From assembly GCA_963796565.1 (NCBI GenBank), contig CAWCMA010000003.1:2454-66453 (forward strand): DNA of 64,000 nt, given 5' to 3'. This document shows, piece after piece, positions 21,002-40,000 of the stretch (its first letter is position 1; every line of letters starts with the position of its first letter). The notes below the pieces were generated by a model that was given only the letters and a program-made list of their open reading frames with translations, had not been told where the DNA came from and made no database searches. The DNA is from an uncultured delta proteobacterium. Its GTDB lineage: Bacteria; Desulfobacterota; Binatia; Binatales; Binataceae. The translations under genes were made by a program, and so were the position numbers.

Positions 21002-21247
21002 TCACTGCAGTTTCTCCGTCGAAGGTTCGGTTACGCGGCCATTCAGTTTCCGGCCCGGACGTGGGGCACCTTCGAGCTCGGCCTTGATCTGCTTGCAGAG
21101 CCGCCACATCGCCGCCGTGATCGTCTCGCCAAGATCGAAGCCCGCATCTTCGGCCCGACTGCGCAGTTGCTCGATCTCACGCTTGAGCGCCGCAGGCAGC
21201 TTGAACGTGATCGCTTCGCTTTCCTGTTTGCGCTTGAGAACTCCCAT
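21002..21247 (-). CDS. Ribbon-helix-helix (Arc/MetJ-like) DNA-binding protein
   Basis: 81 aa. 'ITFKLPAALKREIEQLRSRAED' is a β-strand plus helix RHH signature. It lies between trbI and traF, a possible relaxosome/oriT accessory position. Confidence 0.5.
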   Translation of the reverse strand: MGVLKRKQESEAITFKLPAALKREIEQLRSRAEDAGFDLGETITAAMWRLCKQIKAELEGAPRPGRKLNGRVTEPSTEKLQ

Positions 21248-30861: not shown

Positions 30862-32232
30862 ATGACGAGCAGTTTGGGACACCATGCAGTTGTGATCGGC
30901 GGGAGCCTGGCGGGGCTGATGAGCGCGACGGTGCTGGCCGACTACTTCGACCGTGTCACCGTGTTCGAGCGCGATAAGCTCGAAGATCGGCCCGTGCTCC
31001 ACAAGTCGGTCCCGCAGGGCAATCATATTCACGCTCTGCTGCTCAGTGGGCAGCACGTGATGTCGTTACTCTATCCCGGCTTCACCGAGGAACTGAAGGC
31101 GCTCGGCGCCGTGCGTTTCAGGCAGGGTATCGACATCGCCTTTTACGGTCCCCATGGCAAGGGCTACAACGCGACCGGGTCAGTAAGGGAACCTCGCGAC
31201 CTTGGGCTCGAGGGCCACATCATGAGTCGCGGGCTGCTCGAATATCACGTCAGGCGGCGGACGGTCGCGCTCGCCAACGTGAAGCTCGAGGCGGATGCCG
31301 CGATCGAAGGGCTGGTTCATGATGGTGGGCGAGTTCGCGGCGTGCGCCGCAATGGCGCGGCGGGTGCGCAGCCGGTCGAGGCTGACCTGATAGTCGATGC
31401 GGGTGGGCGCAGTTCTCACGCCGCGCGTTGGCTGCTTGAGATGGGAGTGCCGGCTCCAGAGGAAACGACCATCGGTGTCGACTTTGCCTATACGAGCACC
31501 AAGTACCGCAAGCCCGAACTCGACCACGAATCGGAGCCGTTGCTGCTCGTCGGCGGACCGCCGCCTGAATACAAAAGGGCCGCCGGGCTGTTCGAGATCG
31601 AAAACCGCACGTGGCACGTAAGTCTGGCGGGCCGTTTCGGTGACTACCCTCCAACCGACGAAGCAGGGTTTCTGGACTTCGCGAAGGCGTTGCCTTCTCC
31701 CAGGCTCTACGAGCTGATCAAGGACGCCGAACGGATCGCCGACATCACCCATCATCGATTCCCGACCAGTGTCTGGCGGCACTACGAACAATTGCAGACC
31801 TTTCCGCCGGGGTTTCTGATTCTGGGAGATGCAATTTGCAGTTTCAATCCGGTCTATGGGCAGGGCATGAGTTCCGCCGCGCTGCAGGTGCATACGTTGC
31901 AGAAGATTCTCCGCGAGCGAGCGTCCCAATCTCGCGGGCTCGACGGGTTGGCGGCGGCTTTTTTTCCGAAAGCGGCGGAGGCGGTTAGCGCGCCGTGGGC
32001 TCTGGCCGCAAGCTTCGATTTCGCGTATCCCCAAACCAAGGGGGAACGGCCGCCGGGCCTGGCGGAAGGCGCCGGCTACTTTGCGGCGCTGGATTCGCTA
32101 CAGGCCGAGGACATTAATGTACAGCGGTTGGTCACCGAGGTGTTTCAACTCACCCAGCCCATATCGGCGCTGCGTGAAGAGCCTCTACTGAGCCGGATTT
32201 TGGCCCGCCTGCAGCAGCAGCGTCGCGCCTGA
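30862..32232 (+). CDS. FAD-dependent monooxygenase/oxidoreductase
   Basis: N-terminal dinucleotide-binding motif 'HAVVIGGSLAGLMSATVLA...VTVFERD' and second FAD motif 'LIVDAGGRSS'. The 'GDAICSFNPVYGQGMSSAALQ' block is typical of flavin monooxygenases. Confidence 0.75.
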   Translation: MTSSLGHHAVVIGGSLAGLMSATVLADYFDRVTVFERDKLEDRPVLHKSVPQGNHIHALLLSGQHVMSLLYPGFTEELKALGAVRFRQGIDIAFYGPHGKGYNATGSVREPRDLGLEGHIMSRGLLEYHVRRRTVALANVKLEADAAIEGLVHDGGRVRGVRRNGAAGAQPVEADLIVDAGGRSSHAARWLLEMGVPAPEETTIGVDFAYTSTKYRKPELDHESEPLLLVGGPPPEYKRAAGLFEIENRTWHVSLAGRFGDYPPTDEAGFLDFAKALPSPRLYELIKDAERIADITHHRFPTSVWRHYEQLQTFPPGFLILGDAICSFNPVYGQGMSSAALQVHTLQKILRERASQSRGLDGLAAAFFPKAAEAVSAPWALAASFDFAYPQTKGERPPGLAEGAGYFAALDSLQAEDINVQRLVTEVFQLTQPISALREEPLLSRILARLQQQRRA

Positions 32233-32388
32233 GGCGAGCGTCGCGCGGTGCTCCAGCACGTTCATCCCCGCATCGGATAGTTTTTCTACCGAGATTTGTG
32301 TCGCGGATCTTCTCTCCTGTCGTTGGTAGGAGTTCTCGCGGTCTCGTCGAAAGTTACAGACGGCCGGTACGTTGATGCATCGTGCGAT

Positions 32389-32414
32389 GTAACTAATCAC
32401 GATCGCGTGAGAAC
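32389..32414 (+). promoter_or_regulatory. Candidate ECF-σ-dependent promoter upstream of the σ/anti-σ operon (GTAACT-N16-GAAC)
   Basis: 'GATGTAACT-aatcacgatcgcgtga-GAAC' at 32386-32414. An identical motif and spacing recurs at 33938-33966 upstream of msrA. Confidence 0.4.
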
Positions 32415-32656
32415 TCTAGGTCGATGGCACTCGCGCGCGCGCGAAGGTGCCTCAAATTACCGCGATCATTCCGTCGTCCATGCACATTCCATCGTCGATG
32501 CAATTCTCCGCCCGGCGTCAGCGCGCAGGCCTGAGTTGGCCGGCCGGCGGCGGCGGACGTCTTGCGGCGGCGGCTTTTGTTGCGGCAGGCGGCGCTCCGT
32601 GCTGTCCTGATACGCCTGAATCGTGCCCCGTGCGTCTAAGGGAAGGCGCCGGCGCG

Positions 32657-33244
32657 ATGATCACTGGCAGCGCCGCAAGAATGAAAAAGGTCGACGACGC
32701 TCAACGGCTCGAACGGAGCAGGATGCGCATGCATCTGATGGAGCGCCTGCAGCGGGGTGACGCTGACGCCTGCCGTCTCTTGCTCGACGACGTCGGCCCC
32801 GCCGTGACCCGTTTCTTGCGCGGGCGTGTCGCGATCGACGAAGTGGAGGACGTCTACCAGGAGATCTTTATGGCGTTGTTCCAGGCGCGCCATACCTACC
32901 AGGCCGGCCGTCCGCTCGAGCCATGGCTGTTCGCGATCGCGCGCAACGTTGCGGCCGACCACTCGCGACGGCGCTGGGCGCGGGCGAGTTGGGAAGAGCT
33001 GACCCCGGACTTGCCCGAGCGCGCAGCGGGCGACTCGCCCACGGCCTCGCCCGATATCGAAGGCCTCCTGACCAGGCTTCCGCCAGCGCAGCGCGAGGCG
33101 TTCGCGATGCTCAAGCTCGACGGGATGACGCTGGAGGCTGCGGCCGGCCGCGCCGGCGTTTCAGTCGGTGCGTTGAAGGTCCGGGCGCATCGCGCCTACA
33201 AGGCGTTGCGAAAACTGATCGGTGGAGAAAGCGACAGTGGCTGA
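32657..33244 (+). CDS. ECF (σ70 family, group IV) RNA polymerase sigma factor
   Basis: Region 2 'DVYQEIFMALFQARHTYQAGRPLEPWLFAIARNVAADHSRRR' and region 4 HTH 'REAFAMLKLDGMTLEAAAGRAGVSVGALKVRAHRAYKALR'. Start chosen at ATG 32657 (RBS-like AAGGGAAGG upstream). The track ORF begins earlier at 32447. Confidence 0.85.
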   Translation: MITGSAARMKKVDDAQRLERSRMRMHLMERLQRGDADACRLLLDDVGPAVTRFLRGRVAIDEVEDVYQEIFMALFQARHTYQAGRPLEPWLFAIARNVAADHSRRRWARASWEELTPDLPERAAGDSPTASPDIEGLLTRLPPAQREAFAMLKLDGMTLEAAAGRAGVSVGALKVRAHRAYKALRKLIGGESDSG

Positions 33245-33920
33245 AGCGTCCCCAATGACCCACGCGGAGCGCCATCGCCTGCTGGTCGAGGCGCTCGCCG
33301 CGACTATCAGGCCGGTGCGGCCGTTATGGCCGGTGCGCGCGCGTCTGGGGCTTTGGCTATCGCTGGAAGTGCTCGTGCTGTTGTGGGTCGCGACTCATAC
33401 CGGCAACGACTTCATGCGCAAGCTCGATCATCTCGACTATGCACTCGAGGTGATGCTTTTCGCAGGCGCGGCCACGCTCGCGGCGATGCTGGCGCTCCGC
33501 TTGGCCGTTCCGGGGCGGCGCGCCGGTCCACGCGAAGTAGCGCTCTTGATCGTACTGGTGCTGATTGGAACCGCGCTGGTGATCGTCGGCGAACCGATGC
33601 GCACGGGCTATCCGCTCGGTGAATTTTTGCACGTGGGCATCGGCTGCGCCCTCGAGACCTGCACACTCGCCGCGTTGCCCTGGATGGCGCTCTGGTGGGC
33701 GGTCAAGCGGGGCGCTCCGATGCGCGGCGCCGTCGCCGGACTGGCGACCGGTGCGGCCGCACTGCTTTTCTCTTTTGCAATGATGCGTATCGGATGCCCG
33801 ATCGATGAGCCTTTACACGTCCTCACATGGCATCTGCTGCCCGCGCTCGTGCTCATCGCGCTCTCCGCCCTGGCCGGAGCGGCGTGGCTTCGCTTTCGCC
33901 CGCGTGGTCAACAGATGTAG
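33222..33920 (+). CDS. DUF1109-family (NrsF-like) membrane anti-sigma factor
   Basis: N-terminus 'HAERHRLLVEALAATIRPVRP' matches the DUF1109 'LI..LA.DL.PV' start. About six TM helices. Cys residues in loops ('GIGCALETC', 'RIGCPID'). It overlaps the end of the σ gene. An alternative ATG start is at 33255. Confidence 0.7.
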   Translation: MEKATVAEASPMTHAERHRLLVEALAATIRPVRPLWPVRARLGLWLSLEVLVLLWVATHTGNDFMRKLDHLDYALEVMLFAGAATLAAMLALRLAVPGRRAGPREVALLIVLVLIGTALVIVGEPMRTGYPLGEFLHVGIGCALETCTLAALPWMALWWAVKRGAPMRGAVAGLATGAAALLFSFAMMRIGCPIDEPLHVLTWHLLPALVLIALSALAGAAWLRFRPRGQQM

Positions 33921-33940
33921 TTCGGATGCCGTTCGCGGAT

Positions 33941-33966
33941 GTAACTTTCGCCGCTTTTACGAGAAC
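33941..33966 (+). promoter_or_regulatory. Second copy of the GTAACT-N16-GAAC promoter-like motif, ~105 nt upstream of msrA
   Basis: 'GGATGTAACT-ttcgccgcttttacga-GAAC'. Same 6-mer, same 16-nt spacer length and same downstream 4-mer as the copy at 32389. Confidence 0.4.
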
Positions 33967-34071
33967 GATACTGTGAGGCAAGCGCTTCCCCTGAAGCATA
34001 GAGCCTGCGGTAGACGCTGGCTGGCGGAAGTCAGAGATTAACGGAAGACAGGGGCTCGCGCGCAATTCATC

Positions 34072-34740
34072 ATGATGAATCGTCAGACGAATCGCCATCG
34101 ATTCCGGGCGTTTCCCGTGCTCACGCTGCTTTCGGTCGCCGCGTTTGCGGCGGTTGCAGTCGTATCGGTGAACGCGGCTGAAAGCTCCTCTCAGAACGCC
34201 GCCACGCAACAGACGGCGGTCTTCGCCGGCGGATGCTTTTGGGGCGTGGACGCCGTTTTCAAGCACGTCAAGGGCGTAGACCGGGTACTCTCCGGTTATG
34301 CCGGCGGGCAAGCGTCGACCGCGCAGTACGAGACGGTGAGCACCGGGACGACCGGTCACGCAGAGTCCGTGGAGGTCACGTACGATCCGTCGCAGGTCTC
34401 GTACAACGATCTGTTGAAGGTTTTCTTTTACGCCGCGCACGATCCGACGGAACTCAATCAGCAAGGGCCCGATGAGGGGACGCAATACCGCTCGGCGATT
34501 TTTTATACCGACGCGGATCAGAAGCAGGCCGCCGACGCGTACATCGCTCAACTCGATCGAGAAAAAGCATTCTCCGAGCCTATCGTCACCCAGGTAGTTC
34601 CGCTCAAAGGCTTCTATCCAGCCGAGAGCTACCATCAGAACTACCTCGAGCGGCATCCGGACAACCCTTACATCGTGATCAACGATCTGCCCAAGCTCGA
34701 GCTGCTGCGGCATAAATTTCCTCAGCTCTACAAACCGTAA
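34072..34740 (+). CDS. msrA: Peptide-methionine (S)-S-oxide reductase MsrA (secreted/periplasmic form)
   Basis: Signal peptide, then the catalytic 'GGCFWG' motif and a conserved MsrA body ('[10 protein letters not shown]...YHQNYL'). Confidence 0.95.
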
Positions 34741-34906
34741 GCGCTCACCGGCGATAGCTACGCGCCGGAGGGCCGTGCCGAACGCACCCAATCGACGATG
34801 CAATGGTGCGCCCAGGGGCTTTCCTGATGCGTGTGCCTCCCCGCGCGCGGGAGAGGCTAACGTCGAGTGGCCGGGTCGTGCTACGCTGCGCGGCTTGAGA
34901 GGTTAC

Positions 34907-36082
34907 ATGAAAGCCAGGGTCATACGCTGTGCGCGGATCGTTGCGATCTTTGTGGGCGTGCCGGCGATCCTTCTGGGCGTGACGATTTGCCAAGTTGCGC
35001 GCGCGCTCGCCCAGATGCCGCCCCAGGAACAGGTCAACATCCTCGAACTGCCGCCGGTCTCGCCGCATTGGATTGCGGTGACGTCGTTCGGTGGTTCGAT
35101 AATGGTGACGCCGATCACGCTCATCGATGGCGATTCATTGCAGGTGGTAGGCACTATCACCGGCGGGCTGACCGCCATGTTCGCCGCCGCGCCCGACCAT
35201 AAACAGTTCTACACCGCGGACACGTTCTACTCGCGCGCGATTCGCGGCGATCGCACCGACACGATAACGATCTATGACGCGCGCAAACTCGCGCCGACCT
35301 CGGAAATCGTGATTCCCAACAAGCGCCAGCTCGCGGTGCAGGACACCACCGCGATGAACGTCACTCCGGACGGGCGTTTTCTGCTTTATTCGAACCTGAC
35401 TCCGGCAACCTCGGTCACCGCGGTCGACCTGCAAGGCAATAAGGTCGCGGCGGAGATCCAGACTCCAGGTTGTTCCGAGATTCTGATACTCGGGGAGCGC
35501 GAGTTTGCATCGGTATGCGCCGACGGCTCGATGCTGACCACGCAGTTCGACGACAACGCCAAGGCTACGGAGCAAAAGCGTACCGCCAAGCCGTTCTTCG
35601 ATGTCGAGAAGGATCCGGTCTTCGCCGCCCCGGCGATGATCGACAAGCAGGCTTACTTCGTCAGCTATCATGGGGTCGTCTACCCGATGGACATATCGTC
35701 GAGTCCGGCGAGCCCCGGCGCATCGTGGCCACTGCTGACCGACCAGGATAAGCAGGAGGGCTGGCGGCCGGGCGGATGGCAGCCGGTGGCATACTATGCG
35801 CCGGACTATCTGATGTTCGTTCTCATGCATCGGGGCGGTGAATGGACGCACAAGAAAGCCGGGACCGAAGTGTGGGTGTTCAACGTCAGCCAGCACAGCC
35901 GCGTCGCACGGATTCCGCTGCCAGTGGAAGCAAACTCGATTCGCGTGACCCGGGACGGCAAGCCGATCCTGTTTGCGGCCTCCACCCACGAAGGTGTGAT
36001 ACAGGTATTTTCCGCGCTCGGGGGCAAGTACCAGGGCCAAATCGAGGAAATGGGACAGCCGTTCACGCTGTACGGGCTGTAG
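34907..36082 (+). CDS. Amine dehydrogenase heavy-chain-like 7-bladed β-propeller protein (MauB/aralkylamine dehydrogenase family-like)
   Basis: Signal peptide plus a ~360-aa propeller. The repetitive β-strand pattern and overall length resemble methylamine dehydrogenase large subunit. This rests on recall of the family only. No small-subunit (TTQ) gene is adjacent. Confidence 0.45.
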   Translation: MKARVIRCARIVAIFVGVPAILLGVTICQVARALAQMPPQEQVNILELPPVSPHWIAVTSFGGSIMVTPITLIDGDSLQVVGTITGGLTAMFAAAPDHKQFYTADTFYSRAIRGDRTDTITIYDARKLAPTSEIVIPNKRQLAVQDTTAMNVTPDGRFLLYSNLTPATSVTAVDLQGNKVAAEIQTPGCSEILILGEREFASVCADGSMLTTQFDDNAKATEQKRTAKPFFDVEKDPVFAAPAMIDKQAYFVSYHGVVYPMDISSSPASPGASWPLLTDQDKQEGWRPGGWQPVAYYAPDYLMFVLMHRGGEWTHKKAGTEVWVFNVSQHSRVARIPLPVEANSIRVTRDGKPILFAASTHEGVIQVFSALGGKYQGQIEEMGQPFTLYGL

Positions 36083-37035: not shown

Positions 37036-40000
37036 TCACTGGAGCGACAGGTCGGCGCGCGTGGTCTTGCCGCCATCCTTGATCCCGTCGGCGTTGAGCT
37101 TGGGCGGTGCCACGAGCAGTCGCGCCGGGTCGATCTTCGCGCTCAGCGCCTTGCGAACCGCATTGGCCCTGGCTTCGGCAAGCTGCTTGAGGTCGCCGTC
37201 GGTGACCTTGATATTGGCGATCATCAGGTTTTTCATCTCGTCCGGTGGCAGCGATTTGTTGAGTCCGAGCAGATCGCGCGGCTTGTCGAATTTCGCCGCC
37301 TTGTAGGCGCGCCTCAGGTACTTGTTGTACTCATCCGGCGTGATCTGGACGCTCGCCAGGTCCACGTTGGCGGCGCTTTGATCCATATCCAGCAGCTTCT
37401 GTTTCGCGACGCTCTGCTCGACCAGCGCCTCGGGTAGGGCCGCGCGATCGAATTTCGGGTCGACCCGTCCGCAGATACTGACCTTCAGCGACGGACGCGC
37501 CTGCAGGGCCTTGGCGACCGTGTCGAGTTTGCGCCTGGCAAGCGGAGTCAGCGTGGCCCATCCGGGCGAGAACACCACGTAGTTCAGATCTTCGCCGCTG
37601 CCGCCACCGCCGCCGATGGCCGAAGCGATTAGGTTGAAGGGCGAAGTGACCGCCCTGACGAGGAGGCCCATGAACGCGTGCAACACGATACCGCCGACGC
37701 TGAATTGCGGATCGGACAGCGAGCCGGAGACGGGAAGATGGAGATCGATTTGGCCCTGCGAATTCTTGAGTATCGCGACCGCGAGGCGGATCGGCAGATT
37801 GATCGCGTTGGGGCTTTCCACCTTGTCGCCGAAGGTAAGCTGGTCGATGAAGATGTGGTTCTCGGCGGTGAGTTGTTGCTGCTGGAGCAGGTAGTGCACG
37901 TCAACCGTGAGCGTGCCCTTGGTGATCGGGTAGCCGGTGTATTTGGTCGAGTAGGCCGAGAGGTCGGTCAACTCGACGCCTTCGGCCTTGGCCTTGATAT
38001 CGACAAAAGCCAACGGAGTGAGTGGATTGACCGAGCCGCTGATCGTCAACGGCGCGTTGCGGTTGACCTCCCCGTCGAGTTCGACGTCGGCGGGCGTCGT
38101 CGTGCCAGTTCCGAAGGTTCCCACCTTGCCACTAATCTCGGTGAGATCGGCCGAGTAGTTGGGCTTGATGAAGTTGTCGGTGTAGTTGACCTGGCCGCCG
38201 TGAAGCGTGATTCGCCCGACTTCGAGATCGGCCGGGATCGGAGCCGCACTGGGCGCGGCCGCCGGACTCGCCGCGGCCGCCGGTGAGGTCGCCTCGTTAC
38301 TCGCGGCAGGCGGACTTGGTAACGGTGTCGGGGCAGGCGTTGGCGCATTGGTTGGTGCAGGCGCCGCCGGCGTAGCGCCCGGGGCTCCATGCGCCCGCGT
38401 GAGCGAAGTCGGCGCCTGCTCCGGATTCGCCGTCACGTCGCGCAGGTTCAGGCGGCCGTCGCTATTGAGAATGATGCGCGCGTAGAAGTTGCCCAGGTCC
38501 AGCGACGCGACATGGACCTTCGGCGGCCCCGAGCCCAAATTGAAATTAATTCCGTTCGCACTGAGGGAGCTCCAGCGCAGAAAGCTGTCGTTGGTTACCT
38601 TGTCGAGCATCCGCACTCTGCCGAGCACGGCGTCGCCGCGGTAGCTCACGTGCATTTCCTTGCGCTCGTCCGACACCCCCACCTCGCCGTTCAAGGTCAG
38701 GGCGGCGCTGGCGATGGTGGTGTTGAGATGGCTGGTGACGTAGGGATCGAAGGGCGCCAGGTCGAGGCGGCGGGTGACGACCCGAAGATTGAGCTTGAGC
38801 GGCGTTGGGGCGGCCGTTCCTGTCACCTTGAAGCTGCCCTTGCGGTTGAGGATACCGTCGAGGTCGACCCCGATCGGCTTGGAGAGATCGTTCGACACAT
38901 TCTTCAGACGAAGGTTGAGTGGTGCGACGGCGATCTCGACCTTATGCGGCATCGTGTCGTCTTCGACGCTGATTTCGGTTTTTTCGATCGCCACTGATGC
39001 GACCTGGTAGCGCCAGGATCCAGGTGCGGGCGTCGCGGGGGGCGGCGCGGGAGCACGCGCCGCGGCGGCCCTACTGCCCCTGCGTCGGTGCGCCGGCGCC
39101 GAGGCGTGGCGTTCGCGCACGCGCGATTTTCTCTCGAGATGGCGCTTCTCGCGCCGTCTCGACGAGGTGCGGGTGCGCTCGAGCGCGACGGCGGTGGGTT
39201 GCGCTTCAGGGGTTGCGGTCTCGCGCATCAGCGAGGCGAGGTTCAACTGGCCGTTGCGCTCGCGCCGGACGAACAGATGCAATCCATCGGAGCGCACTTC
39301 GGTGACCGTCGCCTGGCGGGTGGCGAGATCGACCTGCCCGATCGACGCGCTCAGTTTGTTCCATCCGATCGGATTTTCGCTCTGCTGCGGGGCGCGCAAT
39401 TCGAACTTTTCCAGCGAGATGCTCGCGGGCGCCGCATGTACGTTGAACCGTCCGGTGGCGAAGACGGTCTGGACCTTGGCCTGCGCAGTCAGTTTGCCGG
39501 TTGCAACGGTGGCCGCCAGAAACGGCTGCGCGAATCCTTGTAGTGCCGGCAGATCGATCGCGGCGAGCGTGATGTCCGTCGTCGCCTTCGAATGGGCGAG
39601 ATCGAGCGCTCCCTTCACCGCGATCGTGCCGCCACCACCAAGCGTCGTGCCCAGGTCAAAGGGAGCCGGCGCTTTCTGACCGACGGTGCGCAGGTCCTTG
39701 AGTCCGACGTGCAGATTGCGCAGCGCGAGCGCCGCCGGCGGCGTGACGCTGTTATCGGTGATCTCCACCGCGGCGTTGGTCAACGCCAGCTCTTCGAGCG
39801 ATACGTCGGTGGGCGCGGGCGGCTTGGCCGTCGCCGCCGGTTGCGGCGTCTGCGCCGCCGCGGGCGGAGCGCTCGCGGTTAGCTGGGCGATGTTGGCCGC
39901 GGCCGTGGACCTGGCGGCAACCGTGGGCGTGGCGGTGGCCGTGCGTGTGGGCGTGGGCGTGGCGGCGACGGTCGCTATCGCGGCCGCGGTCTTGATCGCC

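Follow-up and report, generated by a model that had tools for sequence, protein, structure and literature searches.

A predicted SigF/EcfF-like sigma/anti-sigma stress module with msrA as a likely target in an uncultured bacterium of the Binataceae

We analyzed a 64-kb stretch of DNA (hereafter the window) from an uncultured soil-lineage bacterium of the Binataceae. The locus at positions 32332–34740 encodes an extracytoplasmic function (ECF) sigma factor, a membrane protein of the NrsF/DUF1109 family and the peptide methionine sulfoxide reductase MsrA. Judged by its genes and by a recurrent promoter-like motif, the locus very probably represents an autoregulated sigma/anti-sigma stress module of the ECF16 type (SigF/EcfF-like) with msrA as a direct target. 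The identities of the genes, as well as the position, orientation and conservation of three copies of the motif, were obtained directly by computation. The features of the locus are as follows.

32332–32357, minus strand: third copy of the motif, TGTAACT-N14-GAGAAC, an exact match divergent from the sigma promoter; orphan or relic
32389–32414, plus strand: predicted autoregulatory promoter of the sigma-nrsF operon (−35 GTAACT, 16-nt spacer, −10 GAAC)
32447–32680, plus strand: in-frame upstream region, probable N-terminal extension of sigma, with the block AAFVAAGGAPCC at 32570–32605 followed by an unconstrained linker
32681–33244, plus strand: ECF sigma core, regions 2 and 4, from a conserved MKK start
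33237–33920, plus strand: membrane anti-sigma factor of the NrsF/DUF1109 family, 227 amino acids from GTG 33237
33941–33966, plus strand: predicted sigma-dependent msrA promoter, an exact match 20 nt past the nrsF stop
34072–34740, plus strand: msrA, peptide methionine-S-sulfoxide reductase with N-terminal export signal and a single cysteine

Results

A sigma factor, an anti-sigma factor and MsrA with three copies of one motif

The open reading frame (ORF) ending at 33244 matches Sigma70_r2 (PF04542, E 1.6e-12) and Sigma70_r4_2 (PF08281, E 1.9e-11). Besides these two only PF04545 was matched in Pfam, indicating that the protein consists of regions 2 and 4 only. It scores 59.4 bits with the sigma70-ECF model TIGR02937 (cut-off 42.9), and the best NCBIfam sigma models (PRK12536, PRK12539 and PRK12512) all stay far under their cut-offs. 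The next ORF, 33222–33920, covers the NrsF/DUF1109 model PF06532 in full (model positions 1–204) with 73.6 bits at a cut-off of 26.8, and its start is placed at GTG 33237 because the homologues begin with MAEASPMTH. ORF 34072–34740 is MsrA (PF01625 PMSR, 208.8 bits; TIGR00401, 179.5 bits, cut-off 108.1). An earlier reading of the locus, made from the sequence only, had proposed a sigma/anti-sigma pair, and the pair is indeed found as an ECF sigma gene followed by a DUF1109/NrsF gene, the stop of the first and the start of the second sharing 8 nt (GTGGCTGA). The profile searches named in that reading as a check (Sigma70_r2/r4 and PF06532) all gave matches.

The sequence-only reading had also described two copies of the motif GTAACT-N16-GAAC. 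Both lie exactly where it had placed them, at 32389–32414 (GTAACTAATCACGATCGCGTGAGAAC) and 33941–33966 (GTAACTTTCGCCGCTTTTACGAGAAC), each on the plus strand. The count of two has to be corrected, as a third exact copy runs from 32357 to 32332 on the minus strand (GTAACTTTCGACGAGACCGCGAGAAC). Three exact matches on both strands of 64 kb compare with 0.04 expected from 100 dinucleotide shuffles, none of which reached three. All three copies share the longer pattern TGTAACT-N14-GAGAAC; the spacers differ, so that the copies do not represent a simple duplication. Relaxing the pattern to GTAACT-N16-GAA revealed no further sites in the window, and matches with one mismatch at 21025 and 22426 were dismissed as chance (two extra matches versus 1.27 expected).

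The motif accompanies the sigma gene and msrA in related loci

Conservation of the motif was analyzed in 95 related loci, whose sources are Binataceae-like genomes and metagenomes of soil. GTDB genomes supplied 15 of these loci, JGI metagenomes the other 80. The nearest relatives are genomes carrying the label Candidatus Binataceae or "uncultured delta proteobacterium". Together with a 10-kb slice of the window the loci comprise 401,805 nt, in which we found 173 perfect GTAACT-N16-GAA sites versus 1.28 expected from base composition. Almost all of them (171) fall into three places: upstream of the sigma gene, on the divergent minus strand, or after nrsF. The remaining two sit before doxX in loci L084 and L085.

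Every locus with enough upstream sequence (75/75) carries the plus-strand motif in front of the sigma gene, across sigma identities of 63–100%, and 58 of these 75 also have the divergent minus-strand copy. Where msrA follows nrsF, the motif is found 15–55 nt past the nrsF stop without exception (29/29 loci), compared to only 2 of 27 loci that lack msrA at this place. Both patterns support what the earlier reading had claimed, namely that the module is probably autoregulated and that the second motif probably drives msrA. The presence of msrA after nrsF is limited to a clade with sigma factors at least about 79% identical to that of the window. Moreover, the extended consensus differs by promoter class and reads GTAACTAAT..G....CGCGCGAGAA(T/C) for the sigma promoter and TGTAACTTTCgCcg.tttcggGaGAAC.aTA.TGTgAG for the msrA promoter.

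The two msrA-less loci with a perfect motif after nrsF are L042 (1528–1553) and L069 (1839–1864), which suggests that another target gene follows there; L042 has a second, distant sigma-like ORF downstream. In a more distant clade (L008–L011 and L044–L095; e.g., L009 3419–3444) the sigma promoter lies 24–27 nt before the annotated ATG and its −10 GAA overlaps this ATG (GAATGAAA), so that the transcript cannot contain the annotated start. This resembles ecfF of Bradyrhizobium japonicum, where the mapped start site overlaps the annotated ATG and a downstream start was proposed (PMC3420878).

The promoters of ECF16 sigma factors have been published as tGTAACc-N16-CGAA or (T/C)GTAAC-N17-CGAA (PMC3420878, PMC8315932), and the motif of Caulobacter SigF is GTAACC-N16-CGAA (PMC3511200), compared to GTAACT-N16-GAA(C/T) here. 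The window motif, which is found upstream of both the sigma gene and the predicted target, thus matches the ECF16 promoter with some deviations. Transcription of B. japonicum ecfF starts 6 bp after the −10 box (PMC3420878), and by analogy the start sites would be expected near 32420–32422 for sigma-nrsF and near 33972–33974 for msrA, the latter with a leader of about 100 nt. A scan of 32100–35000 for sigma-70 promoters found none. An Rfam scan of 31000–36000 (E≤1) yielded only one chance microRNA match, so that the long leader contains no known RNA element.

Could msrA simply belong to a sigma-nrsF-msrA operon, as its third gene, and be transcribed from the upstream promoter, with the motif after nrsF being non-functional or marginal? 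The gap between nrsF and msrA is only 151 nt, and we found no terminator-like site in it; such sites were no more frequent than expected by chance and all fell within nrsF or genes further downstream. Transcription could therefore read through from the sigma promoter into msrA. As an explanation that dispenses with a promoter of its own for msrA, the operon is nevertheless very unlikely: all 29 loci with msrA retain the motif in a spacer that otherwise diverges, hardly any locus without msrA has it there, neither the hexamer nor the tetramer is damaged, and an extended consensus specific to this class of site exists.

Equally, a paralogous ECF sigma factor or a DNA-binding regulator might read the motif in place of the adjacent sigma factor. 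Cross-talk between ECF16 paralogues has been suggested for EcfF and EcfS in B. japonicum (PMC3420878), and our view is limited to 64 kb of the genome, with paralogues possible elsewhere. We regard this as extremely unlikely, given that the motif accompanies this very sigma gene in all 75 loci over the whole range of sigma identities, is built of two blocks and spaced like an ECF promoter, and fits the consensus of the sigma group that is distinguished by a DUF1109 anti-sigma factor (PMC8315932). Recognition of the motif by the adjacent sigma factor, with msrA under its own promoter, is the reading that we follow below.

Two invariant cysteines in the anti-sigma factor

A six-helix DUF1109 anti-sigma factor with two conserved cysteines is the hallmark of ECF16 (PMC3511200, PMC3420878, PMC8315932). 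The AlphaFold model of the window NrsF (pLDDT, the predicted local distance difference test score, 88.7) shows an N-terminal helix (residues 9–23) and six long helices (33–54, 66–90, 98–117, 127–159, 164–186 and 192–217), and the protein is accordingly predicted to consist of a short cytoplasmic N-terminal helix and six transmembrane helices. A Foldseek search with this model against the PDB gave no match at E≤0.001.

Counted from GTG 33237, C137 and C187 are invariant in 91 aligned homologues and are 50 residues apart; the invariant columns also include D190, H194 and H199. The characterized cysteines are C131/C181 in NrsF, C129/C179 in OsrA and C129/C179 in AbcS (PMC3511200, PMC3420878, PMC8315932). 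Thus, the window protein has the two conserved cysteines of ECF16 anti-sigma factors at the same 50-residue spacing. The "two loop Cys pairs" of the sequence-only reading dissolve into two invariant single cysteines: in "GCALETC" the second cysteine (C142) lacks conservation, and "GCPID" holds a single one. In the AlphaFold model C137 and C142 are located within the helix 127–159, and only C187 belongs to a loop, as the first residue of loop 187–191. According to the positive-inside rule, the sites of C137 and C187 would face the periplasmic side. A tblastn search of NrsF against 72,556 plasmids, seeking an annotated proteobacterial NrsF, found nothing.

A 1-Cys MsrA with an export signal

MsrA and all its orthologues carry a basic, hydrophobic N-terminus that ends in AxA and in many of them contains RRFR. 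The periplasmic location suggested earlier for the msrA product is well in line with this export signal. RRFR in several orthologue signal peptides is twin-arginine-like. The window protein has one cysteine, the catalytic one of GGCFWG, and this is also the only cysteine in the mature part of every orthologue. A resolving cysteine as in E. coli-type MsrA is thus missing, which makes the enzyme a 1-Cys MsrA. Its neighbourhood in the window contains no gene for a periplasmic reductant.

Points that weigh against an ECF16-type module

Several observations speak against the assignment or weaken it. The −10 element is GAAC or GAAT instead of CGAA, the base before GAA being A, G or C, and GTAAC and GAA stand one base closer together than in the published ECF16 consensus. 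The sigma gene lies about 240–290 nt past its promoter, which is unusual for this family, and msrA could in addition be read through from the sigma promoter. The match of the cysteines to those of the characterized proteins is based on spacing and predicted topology, not on direct alignment. The NCBIfam equivalog model for NrsF, NF042994, gives only 18 bits (E 0.0015, cut-off 300), indicating that the protein is a distant family member at the level of Pfam and not an equivalog of the alphaproteobacterial NrsF, so that its signal may differ. Finally, promoter function, binding by sigma, start sites, signal and induction are deduced from comparison.

Loss of bufA2 and doxX next to a predicted minus-strand promoter

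The third copy of the motif (32357–32332) appears to be an orphan or relic of a deleted bufA2 gene; doxX, between promoter and sigma gene, seems to have been deleted as well. In sister loci (L001, L002, L004, L005, L007, L017, L018, L021, L025–L027 and others) the minus-strand motif precedes a gene of the BufA2 family, encoding a secreted, Cys-rich protein of 95 amino acids (NF050166, 80 bits, cut-off 60). In many of them the plus-strand motif precedes doxX, which is itself upstream of the sigma gene. Representative bufA2 genes are:

L005, 2278–2568, minus strand: sister bufA2 gene
L007, 2264–2551, minus strand: sister bufA2 gene
L002, 2192–2479, minus strand: sister bufA2 gene

The intergenic region of the window maps piecewise onto these bufA2/doxX loci, with two clean gaps. 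In blastn comparisons, 32201–32252 maps to the end of the monooxygenase gene of the sister loci, 32323–32420 to their divergent promoter block, and 32430–32700 to the last 25 nt of doxX together with the doxX-sigma spacer (L005 3210–3479). The window keeps part of the 5′ untranslated region (UTR) of bufA2, including the Shine-Dalgarno-like GGAGAG, and the coding sequence is gone; tblastn searches with BufA2 and DoxX from L005 and L007 found no match in the 64-kb window. More distant relatives also carry a minus-strand bufA2, indicating that the gene is ancestral and was lost by the lineage of the window. Thus, the "compact regulon" of the sequence-only reading stands as far as sigma, anti-sigma and msrA are concerned. 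Inherently compact it is not, but rather reduced, since sister loci add bufA2 and doxX under the same promoters.

Overall, the minus-strand motif co-occurs with minus-strand bufA2 and is mostly gone where bufA2 is gone. Among bufA2-less loci it is degraded or absent, and the window holds the only perfect copy, which points to either a recent loss or some residual use. If still in use, the promoter could give rise to an RNA antisense to the FAD-monooxygenase gene at its 3′ end or to a small unannotated product, and the perfectly intact copy, set against its decay in the other bufA2-less loci, could mean retention by selection. We consider this unlikely. Downstream of the motif, about 100 nt of remnant bufA2 5′ UTR are all that precedes the stop of the convergent FAD-monooxygenase gene, and no ORFs occur other than MRG-stop and a frame of 26 codons running antisense to that gene. 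Neither ORF is conserved, as the closest relative (L016) lacks the whole segment. A recent deletion accounts for the intactness of the motif equally well, and a relic remains our preferred interpretation.

Bufferins are defined by their association with MNIO enzymes, which makes the bufA2 of the sister loci an odd case: it stands alone, with no adjacent MNIO (DUF692) or DUF2063 gene and a convergent downstream neighbour. No MNIO or DUF2063 gene was found beside bufA2 in the available sequence of L002, L005, L007 and L066. In more distant relatives (L066 700–2278, minus strand) the divergent operon comprises a thioredoxin-fold-like gene, a bufA2-like gene and doxX. The thioredoxin-like protein, assigned by eye only, is secreted, 188 amino acids long and has a single cysteine in SNCWNT. 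An operon of this type could supply periplasmic reducing power.

Comparison with characterized ECF16 systems

Autoregulation and the presence of Msr genes are known features of ECF16 regulons (PMC3420878, PMC8315932, PMC4436054). The parallel drawn by the sequence-only reading was Caulobacter SigF-NrsF, and it is borne out by the ECF sigma factor, the six-helix DUF1109 anti-sigma factor with two cysteines 50 residues apart, the GTAAC-type promoter and the predicted autoregulation of the operon. The control of methionine-sulfoxide-reductase genes that was part of the analogy has to be corrected for Caulobacter: the 2012 arrays identified yedY and DUF2282-DUF692-DUF2063 (bufferin) operons, and msrA homologues were unchanged (PMC3511200). 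Caulobacter SigF controls bufferin operons and doxX (PMC3511200, PMC11626156), and a bufferin precursor and doxX stand beside the sigma gene under the same promoter type in the sister loci of the window. However, Caulobacter SigF targets yedY along with entire bufABC(D) operons that include an MNIO enzyme, whereas the relatives of the window have bufA2 alone and the target in the window is an exported MsrA. An NrsF under the NCBIfam equivalog cut-off and a sigma factor with an in-frame extension further set the window apart from Caulobacter.

The EcfF regulon of B. japonicum includes three peptide methionine sulfoxide reductase genes (PMC3420878). In its anti-sigma factor OsrA, Cys129 is located in the membrane and Cys179 in the periplasm (PMC3420878), the places predicted here for C137 and C187. 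In contrast, the B. japonicum Msr genes are unlinked, whereas msrA of the window lies directly downstream with its own predicted promoter; the periplasmic loops of OsrA are methionine-rich and such loops are not seen in the window NrsF; and B. japonicum is an alphaproteobacterium, whereas the host of the window belongs to the Binatota. Azospira SigF controls yedY1Z1-mrpX and Brucella BcrS controls bcrXQP (PMC4436054, PMC8315932). As in the window, the SigF-NrsF and BcrS-AbcS pairs stand beside a periplasmic methionine-sulfoxide repair function, and divergent sigma-dependent promoters occupy the intergenic region that they share. Azospira suillum and Brucella employ the molybdoenzyme MsrP/YedY together with MsrQ and a sacrificial methionine-rich peptide, whereas the window has a classical exported 1-Cys MsrA (PMSR) and no gene for a methionine-rich peptide.

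These parallels bear on the nature of the signal. The module might primarily sense copper or thiophilic metals rather than an oxidant (HOCl or H2O2), with MsrA repairing copper-induced methionine oxidation. In favour of a metal, sister and outgroup loci place the precursor of a copper-binding BufA2 peptide and DoxX under the same promoters, the bufferin operons of Caulobacter belong to the copper-stress regulon of SigF (PMC11626156), and helices 5 and 6 of NrsF bear an invariant Cys-x2-Asp-x3-His-x4-His cluster where they end on the periplasmic side. Yet msrA is the sole remaining target in the window, and H2O2, singlet oxygen or hypochlorite is what triggers the homologous systems of Bradyrhizobium, Azospira and Brucella (PMC3420878, PMC4436054, PMC8315932). 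A primary metal sensor is thus a serious contender, albeit one with somewhat less than an even chance.

A conserved in-frame region upstream of the sigma core

The region between promoter and sigma core is likely translated as an N-terminal extension of sigma, as judged from its pattern of conservation. From the in-frame TAG at 32417–32419, just after the −10 element, the sigma frame is open up to the core, with GTG 32447, ATG 32480 and ATG 32657 as in-frame start candidates. In each of the 34 loci that make up the msrA-bearing clade, a frame-blind DNA search detected a block encoding (F)VAAxGAPCC(P)Y (32570–32605 in the window). The distances from this block to the ATG of the MKK start (32681) are 69, 72, 75, 78, 84, 93, 102, 108 and 117 nt, all nine divisible by three, and none of the 34 loci has a stop. 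By our own calculation, the probability that eight independent indels would all preserve the frame by chance is roughly 1.5e-4. The block resembles the sigma core in its variability, with entropies at the three codon positions of 0.46/0.28/0.67 and 0.35/0.25/0.69, respectively, and the linker shows no codon periodicity (0.78/0.84/0.82). This linker of 23–39 residues after the 12-residue motif is free to vary. In L012 the ATG of the MKK start is replaced by ATA, indicating that translation starts elsewhere in this locus. The block is missing from the more distant clade, where the promoter abuts the annotated ATG.

As an alternative, we considered the block as a regulatory element of DNA or RNA; a possible hairpin was not supported by L003, and this candidate was rejected. 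Translation of the block is favoured because of its codon-periodic variability and the frame-preserving indels, and a dual coding and regulatory role may exist. In the AlphaFold model of sigma with the extension, residues 1–72 are disordered (pLDDT below 50) and offer no structural hint, and residues 73–258 are helical with pLDDT mostly above 90. In one gene call, P0131 (341 amino acids, from a 1320-nt JGI contig), the sigma extension and core continue in frame from a C-terminal portion of DoxX, which is probably a frameshift or assembly error and not a true fusion.

Tentatively, sigma may thus carry a disordered extension of 45–80 residues with a motif under purifying selection, which would provide a second, cytoplasmic layer of control on top of NrsF; we regard this as a speculative proposal that is more doubtful than the stress module itself. 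It might serve as a switch that is thiol- or Cu(I)-responsive, destabilize the self-induced isoform as a degron (cf. sigma-R′) or be a pro-sequence (cf. BldN). We know of no ECF16-type sigma factor with such an extension. N-terminal extensions of ECF sigma factors have been described for BldN (ECF121), SigC (ECF36) and sigma-R′/SigH (ECF12) (PMC7826278). As in these cases, the extra residues lie 5′ of region 2 on a transcript from sigma's own promoter, and an extension of this kind could add a second regulatory layer by processing, instability or auto-inhibition. The likeness is one of arrangement, with no similarity in sequence to be expected; the extension found here consists of a VAAxGAPCC motif and a variable linker in a DUF1109-linked sigma factor.

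Genomic context

Upstream, the module is flanked by a gene for an FAD-dependent monooxygenase (30862–32232) with faint similarity to the quinone-cofactor maturases QhpG, LodB and GoxB, all far under cut-off. On the 3′ side, within 34775–36082, follows the gene for a beta-propeller protein similar to the heavy chain of methylamine dehydrogenase (201.8 bits versus a cut-off of 454). Synteny with the FAD monooxygenase and beta-propeller genes is kept in most relatives. The flanking genes also include luciferase-like monooxygenases, and a 1396-amino-acid ORF downstream of the locus (37036–41226, minus strand) contains long low-complexity stretches rich in Ala, Pro and Thr. The metagenome-assembled genome MFD06092.bin.1.266 harbors the whole locus twice (L002 and L015). 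The sigma, nrsF, msrA and propeller genes of L015 are fragmented or much lower-scoring, which reflects either the decay of a duplicate or an artefact of long-read assembly.

Discussion

Based on these comparisons, we propose the following model for the module. NrsF, as a six-helix membrane protein, would hold sigma at the inner membrane via its short cytoplasmic N-terminal helix. A periplasmic oxidant or thiol-reactive metal would be sensed at or near Cys187, with Cys137 being needed for the binding-competent conformation, and sigma would be released. The released sigma would guide RNA polymerase to TGTAACT-N14-GAGAAC promoters. From the promoter at 32389–32414 it would raise the levels of sigma and nrsF in a positive autoregulatory loop, and from that at 33941–33966 those of the exported 1-Cys MsrA, which would reduce methionine-S-sulfoxide in envelope proteins. 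The minus-strand promoter at 32357–32332 would be left over from the deleted divergent bufA2, encoding the precursor of a copper-binding bufferin, and doxX would have been deleted as well.

The module is an ordinary, well-preserved bacterial stress switch of a known kind in a new host lineage, and the current understanding of ECF signalling remains unchanged. It would extend the SigF/NrsF (ECF16) envelope-stress circuit beyond the Proteobacteria, to which its characterization has so far been confined, into the Binatota, an uncultured phylum of soil bacteria. There the regulon can be read directly from genomes because the promoter is so well conserved. In this lineage, three periplasmic protection devices, an exported 1-Cys MsrA, a BufA2 precursor and DoxX, would be placed under one promoter type, and the window appears to illustrate how such a regulon is remodelled by gene loss, with an orphan promoter left behind. 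The conserved, Cys-bearing extension of sigma may serve as a lead toward a second regulatory input.

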